This document shows, piece by piece, positions 15,485-20,674 of a DNA stretch of 32,000 nt (position 1 is its first letter; each line of letters begins with the position of its first letter). Location of the stretch: NCBI GenBank assembly GCA_964648855.1, contig CAZYLT010000013.1, positions 50,147-82,146 on the forward strand, read 5' to 3'. The notes below the pieces were generated by a model. It was not told where the DNA came from and searched no databases. It saw nothing but the letters and a program-made list of their open reading frames with translations. A program made the translations under genes and the position numbers. This DNA comes from an uncultured archaeon (GTDB lineage Archaea; Asgardarchaeota; Thorarchaeia; Thorarchaeales; Thorarchaeaceae).

Positions 15485-15850
15485 TTATTCTATGCCTATT
15501 CTGGCTGCCACTTTTACCAGCACGAATGCAACAAATGCAATTATGATGAACGTGACTACCTCGCCAGCGAATGCGCCAACTCCGAAGGGGCCAATAGAGA
15601 TGGCTTGCCAATCTACTTCGGGAAGAACGAGTTCAACTACTGGCATCACAATATAGTCCACCAAAGCGCTAACGACATTTCCCAAATAAATTGCAAGGAT
15701 GAAAGCTACAGCGAGCCCAAGAACCTTGTACTTCTTCAGAAATGTCACAAATTCATCTACGAAGTTGTCAGGGGGTTGTGGAGGAGGACTGGGACTAAGC
15801 AATTTCCGTATCTCTCTCAATTCCTCTAACATCTGTTCGTCTGTTGACAT
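15485..15850 (-). CDS. mscL: MscL-family mechanosensitive channel
   Basis: EFVTFL...VLGLAVAFIL...VSALVDYIVMP (S1+TM1) and G.F...V.F.IIAFVAF (TM2); likely ATG at 15850 (track start 15871). Confidence 0.88.
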   Translation of the reverse strand: MSTDEQMLEELREIRKLLSPSPPPQPPDNFVDEFVTFLKKYKVLGLAVAFILAIYLGNVVSALVDYIVMPVVELVLPEVDWQAISIGPFGVGAFAGEVVTFIIIAFVAFVLVKVAARIGIE

Positions 15851-15924
15851 GATATTCCACCGCGAATCCAAGGAAAAGCATGTGCATTACTTTGGATATA
15901 GTTCTTTTGCCAAAACAAATCAGT

Positions 15925-16306: not shown

Positions 16307-17119
16307 CTATTCGCTGCTTCTCAGCAGATAGTAGTCTACTATGTTCTTGCCTTTCATAATCGGTACAACAATAATTGCGACTAACACCACGATTACAGTA
16401 CCGATGGCAGTATAGCTGATTGATGCAATGGCAGCCTGCTTAATTGCTATTCCAACACTTGCCCAAATTACAACAAGACCGAATGCAAAATCATGCCGCA
16501 AGAGAATCATCAATAGTGTAATGACTAATGCAATGATGATGACTGTAACAGTCCAGAGTTCTTGTATCGGTTGAGGAATCCCAGGAATCAATACATTGAG
16601 TACGGATGCCGTGCTGGCTATACTGGCAAGTGAAATCCATCCAAGATAGACACTGACAGGGAGATGAACTGCAATCTTTTCACTAAGAGGAACCCGTTTT
16701 TCGCCAATGCCCAGGCGGATGTAGGTGAATAGCAGCGTGATCAAGAGCAGAACTATTGGCACCTCGGACAGCACGAATAATGGGGGCACACCAAATGAGT
16801 AATGAAATACTATAAGCCAGGAAATATTGAAGATGGCGCCCAGCAAGTATAGGATGCCGATATCCTGCAGATACCCCTTTTCTCTCTCACTAGGTCTCGC
16901 CTGATAGATTGCAAAAGCAGTTAGAAGGATGTAAATGACCCCCCAAATTGCAAATACATAACCAGGGGGCGTGAACAAATTGGGATAAGAGTCTGCCACT
17001 TGACCTGTATTGACCCCATTGAGAGGTAAGATGTTGACCAGTGAATTGAAAAATATTGTCCCGAAAATTGATATAACGTTGATGATCTGAAGGACTCTGG
17101 CATCCGTTCCTGAAGACAT
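16307..17119 (-). CDS. tryptophan-rich sensory (TspO/MBR-like) membrane protein
   Basis: YPNLFTPPGYVFAIWGVIY, N..WL..F and P.SVYLGWIS.A motifs; likely ATG at 17119 (track start 17188). Confidence 0.85.
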   Translation of the reverse strand: MSSGTDARVLQIINVISIFGTIFFNSLVNILPLNGVNTGQVADSYPNLFTPPGYVFAIWGVIYILLTAFAIYQARPSEREKGYLQDIGILYLLGAIFNISWLIVFHYSFGVPPLFVLSEVPIVLLLITLLFTYIRLGIGEKRVPLSEKIAVHLPVSVYLGWISLASIASTASVLNVLIPGIPQPIQELWTVTVIIIALVITLLMILLRHDFAFGLVVIWASVGIAIKQAAIASISYTAIGTVIVVLVAIIVVPIMKGKNIVDYYLLRSSE

Positions 17120-17354
17120 GGTTCCATTAACCATGGTTAATGCATAAAAGGATGTCGCCAGGGATTTTGATACTGTGACACTAAGCATATCGAGTAGTAC
17201 TCGGACGCACTGGATAGATTACATACCTAACGAGAAGGAAGTCATCAACCACGATTCAAAGAGTTCCATGATTCTAATGATGACAGAATAAAGGATAAAA
17301 CATGACCCCCCATGATGAATAATGAGGCCCTAAGATAAAAGGAGCAAATCTGTT

Positions 17355-18425
17355 ATGGAAACTGAATCAAGAAGAGATAAGCAACCCATGTTGAGAGAAG
17401 TCTTCTTGATAGACGAAGGGCTACTGCAGTTTCACTATAGCAGTGATTCTTCAGCCAATGAAAATGATAAGGCAGTTCTTTCCTCCGGGTTGCTGACCGC
17501 ATTACAGGACTTCAGCAGTCAGGCAAGGTCTGGATCTCTAGAATCCTTCCTGACAGGAGATGAGTATTTTCTATTTACAAAATGTCCAGAAACCGACAGA
17601 GCGGTTGTAGGAGTTTTTCACCGTTTCGCTCCAGAAGAATTGGCTCGCAAGTCTCTAGAGAGAATTCAAGAGGTATTCAAGAGTGCAGATATCCCTGATG
17701 CATCTGAAAGACAGCTGCCGGGTGATGAAAAACAGAGGTTGAGGAACCTCATAAGAGAGATAGGACTTCAACTATTCGACAAAGAGTACTTTGAATTGCA
17801 TATTGAAAATCTACTGAGCAACAGAAGTGATATACCTCTAGCATTTCTTGTCGATGCTACGGACAAATCGCATGTGACACATTTCGCCCGACCAAAGCCT
17901 CTATTTCGGAGGAGTCAAGTGGATGATTTTCTTCTTCTCTATTCAACTTTAGACAAGTCTCTTACAAATCTCGGGGTGGCGCCTAGATACTCCTATTTCG
18001 TAATTCACTCACTCGGCTATGCAGCAGCGTCTTATAACTCGGCCCGATTTGCGAGTGTTGCGACAGGTGCCATGAGAGTCGATCCTCAGACGGTATTAGA
18101 CGTAGCAGTCAAGATGTGTATTCCTTCGGGAGAGATGCCAGACATTCCCGACTTTGAACAGGGCGAGATAGAAGGAGTATCACTTCTGTTCAACAATGGA
18201 ATTCTGAAGCATGAAAGCGGAGAGAAATTACCTGCTATGAGCCAAGTGTATCTTTCAACTCTTGTCAATAATGCTGACACATTCTTCAAATCGGTCAATC
18301 GACGAGTCTTCACACGATTTGACGTGTTCGGGGGAACAACTCAGCAGAGAGGCATATCCTTGGTCCGAGAAGGCAACGAAAAATCGCTAAGAGTAGAGCT
18401 CATTCGTTTTTCACAAAGTGAATAG
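17355..18425 (+). CDS. longin-domain protein with two further longin/roadblock-like modules
   Basis: N-terminal VFLIDEGLLQFHY...LSSGLLTALQDFS longin pattern; alternative start ATG 17388. Confidence 0.7.
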   Translation: METESRRDKQPMLREVFLIDEGLLQFHYSSDSSANENDKAVLSSGLLTALQDFSSQARSGSLESFLTGDEYFLFTKCPETDRAVVGVFHRFAPEELARKSLERIQEVFKSADIPDASERQLPGDEKQRLRNLIREIGLQLFDKEYFELHIENLLSNRSDIPLAFLVDATDKSHVTHFARPKPLFRRSQVDDFLLLYSTLDKSLTNLGVAPRYSYFVIHSLGYAAASYNSARFASVATGAMRVDPQTVLDVAVKMCIPSGEMPDIPDFEQGEIEGVSLLFNNGILKHESGEKLPAMSQVYLSTLVNNADTFFKSVNRRVFTRFDVFGGTTQQRGISLVREGNEKSLRVELIRFSQSE

Positions 18426-18478
18426 TAACTCATTTTAGTAGGCGATTCTCCTATTTTCTATCGACGGATGAGAAACTC

Positions 18479-19219
18479 ATGCTGGAGAACACTGAGAATA
18501 GGCATTCAGGTAAAGAGAGCTCGCAGCTAGAAGCGGTATTTCTATACATGGGAATACTCGATGCGTATGAAGCTGTGGGCGTTGAGTTGATAGGGCCCGA
18601 TGTCTTAGAGAATCATGTGCTGCCTAGAATGATATATTATGTTACCGAGTTTTTGCCAGAGGTCTTCTCAGAGCGCGCAAACACAGATGAGCTCACAAGA
18701 GAGCTAGAGGAATTCATTGCTGACTTCCGCGAGCGTGTTGATCGTGCACGCGAATCAGGATCCGCTAAGGGGTTGAGTATTGAGGATATATGGAAGCTGA
18801 GAGCCGCTATTTTTGGATTTGAGAGCGTCTTCATCAACATTCTGGGTAAAGCAGCAATCAAAGACTACGTTTTCATTCGTATAGCGGACATCCTTTCAGC
18901 TTATTTGCCAGATAATCTCTTGGACCCCAACATTTCCTTGGAAAATAAGCTTCGAGACTATGCCAAATTCCTAACAGAACACGAATTTGTAAAATTCGCA
19001 CGGGTTGAGTCAAAGGATGATAAAATAGTAGTAGCAACAAATAATTGCGCGTTTTCGCAGATTCACAATTCAGAAGCGTATACAAATCTGAATGTTCGAT
19101 TCTGCCCGTGGGGAATGATTGGATCGGCTATAGTAGCAGCCCATGAAGGCAAAGAGGCACTGCTTGAATCCAGTCTATTTACCACAAGAGGTAGTGTCAG
19201 CACAATCTCGAAGAAATGA
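18479..19219 (+). CDS. V4R/MetOD1-like domain protein with duplicated helical N-terminus
   Basis: C-terminal IVVATNNCAFSQIH...FCPWGMIG pattern and an internal repeat. Confidence 0.65.
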   Translation: MLENTENRHSGKESSQLEAVFLYMGILDAYEAVGVELIGPDVLENHVLPRMIYYVTEFLPEVFSERANTDELTRELEEFIADFRERVDRARESGSAKGLSIEDIWKLRAAIFGFESVFINILGKAAIKDYVFIRIADILSAYLPDNLLDPNISLENKLRDYAKFLTEHEFVKFARVESKDDKIVVATNNCAFSQIHNSEAYTNLNVRFCPWGMIGSAIVAAHEGKEALLESSLFTTRGSVSTISKK

Positions 19220-19237
19220 ATTTGGAGTGGAATTGCA

Positions 19238-19669
19238 ATGCAAATGTTAACTGGTGGTCAAATCGCAACAATTGTGTTTGTGGTGGAGTCTATTGTATTT
19301 CTTTCTGTAATGATTGGATGGTTGTATGGAGCAAGGCGGATGGACTATGACACTCATCATAGATTTATCTATCCAGCGATGCTAATTCATGTCATTACCG
19401 TAAGTTTGTGGATGATACCTCGCGCTATGCAACTTGCTGAAGAAGGGCTATTTGACGATCCCGTAGGCAATTGGTATCAGATTGTTCACGATGCAATAGG
19501 TTTTGTGGCAATTGCGCTGGGATTAATCATCGCACTGACCTTCCTTGTGAAGTCAGATATGCCGCTCAATATTCTGCAAAAGGCGAAGCCATTGATGTGG
19601 GTAACACTTGGATTATGGCTTGTGTCTTTTGTCTTGGGAATCATCGCGTATCTAGCCCGCTTTGCATGA
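19238..19669 (+). CDS. four-TM DUF420-like membrane protein
   Basis: ARR..YDTHH...LIH and VHDAIG histidine pattern; 4 TM helices. Confidence 0.7.
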   Translation: MQMLTGGQIATIVFVVESIVFLSVMIGWLYGARRMDYDTHHRFIYPAMLIHVITVSLWMIPRAMQLAEEGLFDDPVGNWYQIVHDAIGFVAIALGLIIALTFLVKSDMPLNILQKAKPLMWVTLGLWLVSFVLGIIAYLARFA

Positions 19670-19748
19670 CTCAGTAAGATGATTACCGTACGATGGTATA
19701 ACAGCTTGGGCGCCGCAATACGTATAATCGAAGATTGTATCTCTACTA

Positions 19749-20084
19749 GTGGTGTCCTCCTTGGCCTCAACGACATATGGGCAATTATCTCCTGCTGAAC
19801 TTCATGAGTTGAAAAAGCTCAAAGAAGTCAAAGAGGCTTTAGATAAATTAAAACGGAGAGGCATCTCTGCGGATATCCCGATTTGCCCCGTTTGCAAGAG
19901 CCATAGACTTGTCAGGCTAACATCATATTATGACTTGGGCTATATTGGAAGCTTCCATCCAGCTTACTACTGTCTTGACTGTGGGTGGTACGGCAGAACA
20001 ACTGTCGTCATGTCCAATAGGTCTGAGAAGAATGAAGTTCTTGAAGACCTGATGTTTGCCTTCTCAGACCTAATGGAAGAGTAA
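19749..20084 (+). CDS. zinc-ribbon protein
   Basis: CPVC...YYCLDCGWYG; start may be TTG 19761. Confidence 0.75.
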   Translation: MVSSLASTTYGQLSPAELHELKKLKEVKEALDKLKRRGISADIPICPVCKSHRLVRLTSYYDLGYIGSFHPAYYCLDCGWYGRTTVVMSNRSEKNEVLEDLMFAFSDLMEE

Positions 20085-20106: not shown

Positions 20107-20397
20107 TCATTCTCTATCGATTCGAGTTAGCTCAAAAATCACCGGGTTGAAGCCATCCGGACAGGCATGCGTTGCTGAACATTGATCTTCTAGCCATGGA
20201 AATCTTGCATTGTATGTCATGGCGTACACTTTAGGCATCATGGAATAGAGGGCACTCAGACATATTTTGCCCTTCACCTCTTCACCCGTGAAGATTATCT
20301 CATCTCCGACTTTGTGTCCCGCTGCACAGTCACCCTCTTGGGAAATAACTCTACATCTGATTTGCCAAGGTTCTTGTCTTAAACACTCATCACTCAT
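20107..20397 (-). CDS. TIGR04076 family protein
   Basis: G.C.AGHKVGD, IC..AL and CPD..NPVIFEL motifs; likely ATG at 20397 (track start 20520). Confidence 0.88.
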   Translation of the reverse strand: MSDECLRQEPWQIRCRVISQEGDCAAGHKVGDEIIFTGEEVKGKICLSALYSMMPKVYAMTYNARFPWLEDQCSATHACPDGFNPVIFELTRIDRE

Positions 20398-20674
20398 GGG
20401 TTTCATCCCTTTCGAATAGCATTCTGAGCCTCCATATAGGCTTTGTACCTGCAGGGGAATGATATTCCAATTATGGTTGCCCTTCTTCTCGTAGAGATTT
20501 AGGTTCATCCCATCCCCCAACGCTGATCGACGGAACTACCTATTTTAGTGATCGCTTCGAGATAAGATGCACTACAGGGTATCCATACTGCTGGTCCTCA
20601 AAGGGAACGAACTGAATTAAGTTGTTGGGATAATCTTAGTGCAGCCCAGTTTTTTGGCAGGATAAACCAGGCCT

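Follow-up and report, generated by a model that had tools for sequence, protein, structure and literature searches.

What does a longin-fold protein do in an Asgard archaeon when its gene adjoins those of a V4R-fold protein and of a membrane protein? This question is raised by a locus of an uncultured member of the Thorarchaeaceae (assembly GCA_964648855.1), located at positions 17,355 to 20,084 of a 32,000-nucleotide stretch of contig CAZYLT010000013.1 (positions 50,147 to 82,146 of the forward strand). The whole stretch is called the window hereafter, and all unprefixed coordinates refer to it. The open reading frame (ORF) list of the window contains at this locus four plus-strand ORFs with gaps of 53, 18 and 79 nucleotides (nt), all judged to be real genes, and the initial annotation was right in describing four co-oriented genes between minus-strand genes:

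17355..18425, plus strand: g1, 356 amino acids (aa), three-domain longin/roadblock protein with a tri-longin-like layout; likelier start at Met12 (17388)
18479..19219, plus strand: g2, 246 aa, very conserved protein of predicted V4R/Bet3/H-NOX fold
19238..19669, plus strand: g3, 143 aa, membrane protein with four transmembrane (TM) segments, distantly DUF420-like
19749..20084, plus strand: g4, 111 aa, GTG start, Zn-ribbon protein with two CxxC motifs; a neighbour outside the cassette

The start of g1 at 17388 was preferred to that at 17355 because the alignment of its homologues begins at Met12. We found that g1, g2 and g3 form a cassette that is kept together across Asgard archaea. Our proposal, to which we give a rough probability of 0.4, is that they encode an optional, Asgard-specific, membrane-associated complex in which g1 would be a platform regulating a GTPase encoded elsewhere.

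Conservation and distribution of the cassette

The trio g1-g2-g3 was present in all 15 loci read (the window and 14 others with a full-length g2), g1 being directly upstream of g2 in each of the 14, and its synteny spans Thor-, Hod-, Heimdall-, Odin-, Frey- and Loki-type genomes. Conservation of the neighbourhood across Asgard genomes, which had been suggested as a check, was therefore obtained for these three genes in several Asgard classes. The start of g3 ranged from an overlap with the end of g2 to a distance of 17 nt in loci L001-L008, compared with 18 nt in the window, and in two Heimdall-type loci g3 was convergent instead of downstream and co-oriented.

The distributions of g1 and g2 were compared by profile scan across 400 Asgard genomes; in the counts given here, the family of the window is represented by 85–86 genomes, or by 41 for PF04051. 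Both distributions were alike: g1 and g2 occurred in 30–31 of 85 genomes of this family and in 4 of 12, 4 of 22 and 1–2 of 6 genomes of three others. Both genes were on the same strand and within 170 nt of each other in 36 of 40 genomes, and a partial profile match and a 0.8-kb insertion account for two further cases. About 800 nt, instead of 60–120, separate g1 and g2 in one genome of the own family (G318:C18:28461-31004), and in one Hodarchaeota metagenome-assembled genome the NCBI locus tags skip one number between the two genes.

At least three genomes carry g3 without g1-g2 but beside the same upstream neighbours, which indicates that g1-g2 behaves as a unit of gain or loss. The gene g3 is kept and g1-g2 is missing at L028:4532-5400, L029:2202-2636 and L030:3462-4403; g4 is kept in L028 and L030 and was not found in the L029 stretch. 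The upstream neighbours in L028 resemble those of L001, a cassette-bearing relative, suggesting a clean gain or loss.

The initial annotation had treated the four genes as a single unit. It is true that g4 is co-oriented and close to g3, and that it is adjacent to the trio in several family genomes and, among the loci read, in L001 and L004 only. However, 74 of 86 family genomes have g4, whether or not they carry g1-g2. It is often located on another contig (usually so in the largest genus), and it was not found next to the trio in the non-Thor cassettes read. This independent distribution makes g4 a mere neighbour and not a member of the cassette, and a functional unit comprising all four genes, Zn ribbon included, is very unlikely.

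A compact protein with the domain layout of tri-longin subunits

The AlphaFold2 model of g1 (predicted local distance difference test, pLDDT, 83.8; predicted template modelling score, pTM, 0.73) consists of three alpha/beta domains, given here with their order of strands (b) and helices (a):

17388..17720, plus strand: domain 1, aa 12-122, canonical longin, bb-a-bbb-a, as seen in the model and by VIA structural search
17721..18140, plus strand: domain 2, aa 123-262, roadblock type, a-bb-a-bbb-a, the long helix 123-154 included
18141..18422, plus strand: domain 3, aa 263-356, lamtor-like, bb-a-bbb without closing helix; model pLDDT 84-97

The longin region (residues 12-145) matched TRAPPC4/Trs23 (2j3t_D) with a VIA Z of 12.6 (root mean square deviation, rmsd, 2.8; 119 aligned), followed by the VAMP7 longin (Z 12.0) and LD1, the first longin domain, of Fuzzy (Z 11.8). 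The roadblock region (about 140-260) gave Z values of 10.0 and 9.8 with Roadblock3 and Roadblock2 of MK-D1 (9jue, 9jq8) and of 9.5 with MglB. The lamtor-like label of domain 3 is based on the order of strands and helices in the model and on its place within the full-length Foldseek alignments described below. Alignment of the homologues revealed the invariant motif D38..LSSG..A...FS...R58 in domain 1 and the likewise invariant motifs DIPLAF and FARPKPLF in domain 2, and hhalign did not detect sequence similarity among the three domains.

Domains of longin, roadblock and lamtor type follow each other in the same order in Mon1 and Ccz1 as LD1, LD2 and LD3 (Klink et al., PMC8833172), and g1 shares this order with the subunits that form tri-longin domain (TLD) guanine nucleotide exchange factors (GEFs) of Rab GTPases, namely Mon1-Ccz1, Fuzzy-Inturned/CPLANE and HPS1-HPS4/BLOC-3. 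In agreement with this, places 1-21 of the Foldseek search of g1 against PDB were all occupied by TLD subunit chains (Mon1, Ccz1, Fuzzy, Inturned, HPS1/4) with E-values from 2.5e-9 to 8e-6, a probability of 1.0 and about 400 aligned columns, the next fold class starting at an E-value of 2e-5. TLD Rab-GEFs are heterodimers of paralogous subunits, joined through LD1-LD1 and LD3-LD3 contacts, in which the alpha-X/beta-X linker between LD1 and LD2 completes LD3. Unlike these subunits, g1 is archaeal, optional and much smaller, has no Pfam match and no predicted beta-X strand, although its model has a 32-residue helix (123-154) between domains 1 and 2. Each cassette has one g1 gene and no paralogous TLD heterodimer partner, the gene of the window being the sole full-length copy in its genome. 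The partners of g1 are a V4R-fold protein and a membrane protein rather than a Rab.

The database search returned 51 homologues of g1, all of them free of Pfam domains. When 1.84 billion representative proteins were searched with the g1 profile, 53 clusters were recovered, with full-length matches of about 310-360 aa, none as large as eukaryotic Mon1; the named members belong to Thor-, Hod-, Hermod- and Heimdallarchaeota and to Promethearchaeota. Pfam and NCBIfam scans of g1 gave no match, and searches of PDB sequences with the g1 and g2 profiles gave only chance matches (E-value 0.55 or above). For named families, the Atlas feature search produced no lead of 0.9 or more.

A role as a GTPase-activating protein (GAP) was also considered. 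In GAP longins of FLCN/SMCR8 type the longin domain bears a GP motif in its beta1-beta2 loop (PMC12290439). No such motif is present in g1, whose consensus at this loop is D-x-G-[VIL], with Pro in 0 of 27 sequences, and this rules out g1 as an FLCN-type GAP longin.

Two further longin-related observations were made. Contig C18 of the same genome (G000:C18:23087-25367; L027:3088-4014 and L027:4085-5368) carries two adjacent co-oriented genes for proteins of 308 and 427 aa, whose N-termini are weakly matched by the g1 profile (E-values 8e-4 and 7.5e-5) and which have sub-threshold Pfam scores (Fuz_longin_1, 20.8 and 17.7 bits; Intu_longin_1, 17.1 bits). Judging from their sequences, these genes may represent longin-domain paralogues paired in the manner of Mon1 and Ccz1. 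In addition, a 267-aa protein of another locus (L021:4001-4804) has a g1-like N-terminal longin (E-value 2e-11) joined directly to a hydrophobic, probably transmembrane, C-terminal region.

A V4R/Bet3-like protein with an internal duplication

At least 144 homologues of g2 were found. They share 54-88% identity across Asgard classes and their alignment has 65 invariant columns, C190, H196, C209 and H222 among them. The AlphaFold2 model (pLDDT 84.9, pTM 0.83) starts with helices at the N-terminus and continues as an a-bb-aa-bb unit, and two regions can be distinguished:

18512..18766, plus strand: helical unit at the N-terminus, aa 12-96, which duplicates internally the helical half of the V4R-like domain
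18767..19216, plus strand: V4R-like alpha/beta domain, aa 97-246, carrying C190, H196, C209 and H222

The duplication relates residues 29-85 to residues 113-167 (hhalign probability 87%, E-value 3.6e-6, 55 columns). Since V4R and Bet3 proteins dimerise through helices of the kind duplicated here (PMC10933270), we reasonably infer that g2 is a single-chain pseudo-dimer.

When g2 and 27 homologues were compared with Pfam at E-values up to 1, neither PF04051 nor PF02830 was matched, and NCBIfam was also empty. In an unbiased structural search the VIA Z values were 7.9 for YslB, 7.5 for H-NOX (over residues 23-246), 7.1 for Thor-TRAPPC3 (7yh2), 6.8 for Bet3 (3cue_B), 6.5 for BcsD, 6.4 for PoxR, 6.2 for the V4R protein MJ1460 and 6.1 for DmpR. 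The V4R/Bet3/H-NOX superfold, in which two N-terminal helices pack against a four-stranded alpha/beta unit, accounted for 10 of the top 14 rows, over residues 97-246, with Z values of 6.0-7.9 that the tool rates as middling. Foldseek gave probabilities of 0.96-0.99 at E-values of 0.035-0.1. Comparison of structures with the Atlas gave a template modelling score (TM-score) of 0.66 to an RdxA_C cluster and of 0.44 to a V4R cluster. The middling Z values, spread over one superfold, do not allow g2 to be placed in a single family.

The predicted alpha/beta fold of g2 resembles that of the prokaryotic V4R sensors (PoxR, DmpR, MopR; MJ1460), YslB and H-NOX, with the H-NOX alignment extending over the N-terminal helices as well as the alpha/beta part. 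Unlike those sensors, g2 has no PF02830 match, haem motif or output domain and is encoded beside a longin protein. H-NOX proteins have a proximal His and the haem-propionate motif Y-x-S-x-R, and this motif is absent from the sequence of g2.

The membrane protein and the possibility of a sensing module

Four hydrophobic segments, taken as four TM segments, are predicted in g3. Its match to PF04238 (DUF420) extends over positions 2-128 of the 130 of the profile but stays below the cutoff (24.2 versus 30.5 bits, E-value 4e-5), and 3 of 11 g3 orthologues match this family. In the alignment of 11 sequences E17, H40, H41, Y45, M59, P61 and H84 are invariant, and by the positive-inside rule H40 and H41 are probably at the cytoplasmic end of the second TM segment. 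A Heimdall-type orthologue outside this alignment (L019:5761-6183), convergent to g2, lacks the HH pair and keeps H84. The genome of the window also has a second, divergent g3-like gene (G000:C6:97824-98225; 158-aa open frame, E-value 7e-14 to the g3 profile), and similar paralogues exist in several relatives.

In its length of about 140 aa, its four TM segments and its near full-length sub-threshold match, g3 resembles DUF420/CtaM proteins. Proteins of the DUF420 family are relatives of the halves of haem A synthase and have been connected with the handling of copper (PMC8239418, PMC13344008). However, COX1 was found in 0 of 86 genomes of the own family, whereas g3 was found in 46 of 85. As a family without haem-copper oxidase nevertheless has g3, the role of CtaM in oxidase assembly cannot apply here and was discarded.

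These features of g2 and g3 lead to an alternative explanation, in which no GTPase takes part and the cassette encodes a ligand-, metal- or redox-sensing or cofactor-handling membrane module. In such a module g2 would bind a small hydrophobic molecule, a metal or haem, g3 would hold or pass on a cofactor by means of its invariant His, Met and Glu residues, and g1 would be only a dimerising or adaptor scaffold. Binding of ligands is common in the fold family of g2, with phenols in PoxR, DmpR and MopR, haem in H-NOX and palmitate in Bet3 (PMC10933270); H-NOX aligns over nearly all of g2, and the very high conservation of g2, with its invariant Cys/His set, recalls that of enzymes or sensors. The kinship of g3 with DUF420, the recurrence of redox-related genes near the cassettes and their patchy, accessory distribution would fit as well. 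However, g2 lacks the haem motif, the redox-related neighbours differ lineage by lineage, oxidase assembly is excluded in the own family, and the obligate pairing of g2 with a three-domain longin/roadblock protein is left unexplained. We consider this explanation the main alternative, somewhat less likely than our proposal. It is compatible with the GTPase platform proposed above, as a sensor feeding such a platform would combine both.

Variant cassettes and a sequence bridge to the TLD family

Other Asgard genomes contain variant forms of the cassette. Loki-type proteins of 345-354 aa consist of a His-bearing polytopic membrane domain fused to a g2-like V4R domain (E-values from 1e-11 to 1e-14 with the g2 profile). 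The four membrane-V4R fusions are:

L009:3995-5032
L010:3428-4477
L011:3977-5041
L012:3971-5029

In L009, L010 and L012 the fusion adjoins a multi-longin gene, the partner proteins having 367-396 aa. The partners in L009 and L010 pass the cutoff of the Pfam model Fuz_longin_1 (29.2 and 28.3 bits versus 26.1), which represents the first longin domain of Fuzzy, Mon1 and HPS1, and the N-terminus of the L010 partner is matched by the g1 profile with an E-value of 1e-8. Together, these matches link g1 to the TLD family at the level of sequence. Homology of g3 with the membrane half of the fusions was not detected (hhalign probability 0.3%), which suggests that attachment of the V4R protein to the membrane has been achieved in two ways. 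A third form of the cassette has a 272-aa two-domain longin/roadblock protein and a 164-aa V4R-only protein.

Predicted contact between g1 and g2

The initial annotation supposed that the longin and V4R-like proteins form a complex. Synteny speaks for it, and structure prediction with alignments gave for g1 and g2 a score of 0.49 (runs of 0.58, 0.49 and 0.42) against 0.00 for the best control, so that the predicted contact agrees with the supposition but supports it weakly. The runs coincided in at least 93% of contacts, with a partner pLDDT of at least 76. In the benchmark of this score, 58 of 80 solved complexes attained the mark, as did 2 of 110 mismatched pairs; passes at 0.60 or below came from only 7 of those 80 complexes and from both mismatches. 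As the adjacency of g1 and g2 is conserved, the prior for their contact is not low.

Synteny could also result from co-regulation or from transfer of a block, the three proteins acting separately. The capacity of g3 to stand alone and the weak complex score agree with this, and the patchiness of the cassette would fit a mobile block. However, g1 and g2 do not differ in their distribution, and they keep a fixed order across several Asgard classes; besides, the g2-g3 spacing suggests translational coupling, and fusions of a membrane domain to a V4R domain exist. Synteny without a physical complex is, in our opinion, quite unlikely.

Relationship to TRAPP

The combination of a longin fold with a Bet3/V4R fold recalls the TRAPP core, in which Bet3-family subunits are associated with the longins Bet5, Trs23 and Trs20, and the initial annotation had called the locus proto-TRAPP-like. 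An archaeal TRAPPC3 protein, Thor-TRAPPC3, has been solved (PDB 7YH2), and a Heimdall longin-TRAPPC3 fusion has been noted (Tran et al. 2024, PMC10933270). If g1 and g2 were the archaeal counterparts of the TRAPP longins and of Bet3, acting as a Rab1-type GEF, the best match of domain 1 of g1 to TRAPPC4/Trs23, the resemblance of g2 to Bet3 and Thor-TRAPPC3 and the adjacency of both genes would be accounted for. The Cys-containing site of g2 also falls in the region that holds the Zn site in Thor-TRAPPC3. However, g2 differs by its additional, duplicated helical unit and by a set of Cys and His in place of four Cys, and comparison of its profile by hhalign with that of 29 canonical Thor-TRAPPC3 sequences did not detect similarity (probability 0.7%). 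Unlike the single-domain TRAPP longins, g1 has three domains, its matches to TRAPPC4, VAMP7 and Fuzzy are tied within 1 Z, and at full length it matches TLD subunits and not TRAPP.

In addition, the genome has real TRAPP genes. On contig C12 (G000:C12:68841-73874; L026:5842-10875) a V4R gene matching PF02830 (183 aa) is clustered with two TRAPP genes matching PF04051 (157 and 168 aa); after each of the TRAPP genes comes one whose product, of about 330 aa, weakly matches a winged helix at its C-terminus. Of 41 family genomes, 40 had canonical PF04051 genes, in most cases two of them separated by about 3 kb, while only 30–31 of 85 have the cassette. The cassette was therefore rejected as the TRAPP of this genome, and a true proto-TRAPP is highly improbable. 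From the initial description of a longin gene and a V4R-like gene, the folds are supported (Z 12.6 for g1 and 7.9-6.1 for g2), but neither a single longin of TRAPP type nor a V4R or TRAPP sequence match was found.

A proposed membrane-associated platform for GTPase regulation

In the mechanism that we propose, the four TM segments would place g3 in the membrane and g2 would dock on it, as suggested by the tight coupling of their genes and by the fusions found elsewhere. The apparent pseudo-dimer g2, with its Cys/His site and probably a small-ligand or metal pocket, would bind g1, as weakly predicted. Finally, the longin/roadblock/lamtor-like platform of g1 might regulate a small GTPase encoded elsewhere, as its fold families suggest; they offer precedents for such regulation in Mon1-Ccz1, TRAPP, Ragulator and MglB. 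The protein may homodimerise in place of the eukaryotic heterodimer. This proposal is drawn from the layout of g1, its sequence bridge to the TLD family, the co-distribution of the genes, their coupling to the membrane, the weak complex score and the precedent of the Heimdall longin-TRAPPC3 fusion.

The roadblock and lamtor-type domains of g1 make the cassette comparable with Ragulator/LAMTOR and MglB as a candidate membrane-tethered GTPase platform. Unlike in those systems, a single chain contains these domains, the V4R-fold protein would act as an adaptor between this chain and a polytopic anchor, and no Rag- or MglA-type gene is linked to the cassette.

Several results weigh against a GTPase platform. 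First of all, the cassette is optional: of 90 Asgard genomes of high quality 9-13 contain it, and it is missing from genomes of its own family that are 97-98% complete, so that an accessory function fits better than core trafficking, and g3 has a broader distribution than g1-g2 and persists without them. Secondly, the search of Pfam longin models, Fuz_longin_1-3 and Intu_longin_1-3 included, with g1 and 26 aligned homologues, at E-values up to 1, gave nothing except one Fuz_longin_3 match with an E-value of 0.24, and all fold matches of g2 are middling, with VIA Z values below 8. In addition, global superposition of g1 on TLD subunits was poor (TM-score 0.21-0.29, rmsd about 20 A) and did not reproduce their triangular arrangement, from which we conclude that the relative placement of the domains either differs or was mis-modelled. 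The modelled g1-g2 contact has a score in the range where, if the prior is not strong, passes are wrong more often than right. Finally, linkage to a GTPase was not observed. The initial annotation had reported no small GTPase in the window, and we found no Ras-family GTPase on the entire 82-kb contig, the genome having 25 elsewhere. Among the genomes with variant cassettes, 1 of 5 had a Ras-family gene nearby (G271, about 2 kb away), which is at chance level.

Flanking and neighbouring genes

The cassette of the window is flanked by two minus-strand genes:

16307-17188, minus strand: TspO/MBR-like membrane protein, 293 aa, upstream flank
20107-20520, minus strand: TIGR04076-family gene, downstream flank

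The TspO/MBR-like gene is divergent from g1, with a spacer of 166 nt, and beyond it an MscL-like gene is located at 15485-15871 on the minus strand. DNA of the window occurs in microbial-mat metagenomes, which may be its source.

Redox-related genes observed near cassettes encode rubrerythrin, thioredoxin, AhpD-like CMD, FMN reductases, DOMON-cytochrome b561, COX, Cu-ATPase and TspO. In a Hodarchaeales locus (L005:6364-10738) genes for DOMON, COX3, COX2 and COX1 come after the cassette, in this order and on its strand, and in L006 a DOMON-cytochrome b561 gene abuts g3. In Freyarchaeum (L002) a copper P-type ATPase gene is upstream of the cassette and a 514-aa Sec23/24-like gene (L002:7838-9382; Sec23_trunk, Sec23_BS and VWA) is about 2 kb downstream.

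Novelty and biological meaning

In the literature searched for Asgard archaea in connection with tri-longin and V4R proteins we found no description of the cassette or of archaeal tri-longin proteins, the closest study being that of Thor-TRAPPC3 (Tran et al. 2024). The Asgard inventories consulted list single longin, roadblock and TRAPPC3 proteins, which are rarely connected by operons (PMC10933270), and tri-longin Rab-GEFs have been treated as exclusive of eukaryotes. This analysis adds the behaviour of g1-g2 as a unit of gain or loss while g3 survives alone, the independent, near-universal distribution of g4, and the contrast within one family between an accessory cassette and a near-universal TRAPP. 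It also adds the absence of COX1 from the family, the Fuz_longin_1 bridge to the TLD family and the candidate second, adjacent pair of longin paralogues on contig C18.

An evolutionary extension of the proposal would be that in g1 a prototype of the tri-longin Rab-GEFs survives, homodimeric and encoded by a single gene, and that together with its membrane-anchored Bet3/V4R partner g1 would represent a pre-eukaryotic GTPase-activating platform ancestral to the logic of both TLD- and TRAPP-type GEFs. This extension is unlikely. If it were true, the machinery of organelle identity would have had a membrane-bound archaeal forerunner that could be reconstituted. If instead the cassette were a sensing module, folds of trafficking type would serve a different, optional membrane function in archaea, and this would be a caution against taking such folds as evidence of trafficking. 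Across Asgard classes, the gene for a compact three-domain protein with the layout of Mon1/Ccz1 stays tied to those for a Bet3/V4R-fold protein and a membrane protein. This is a defined set of three proteins that could be reconstituted and screened against the GTPases of its own genome, and with it the origin of Rab regulation becomes experimentally approachable.

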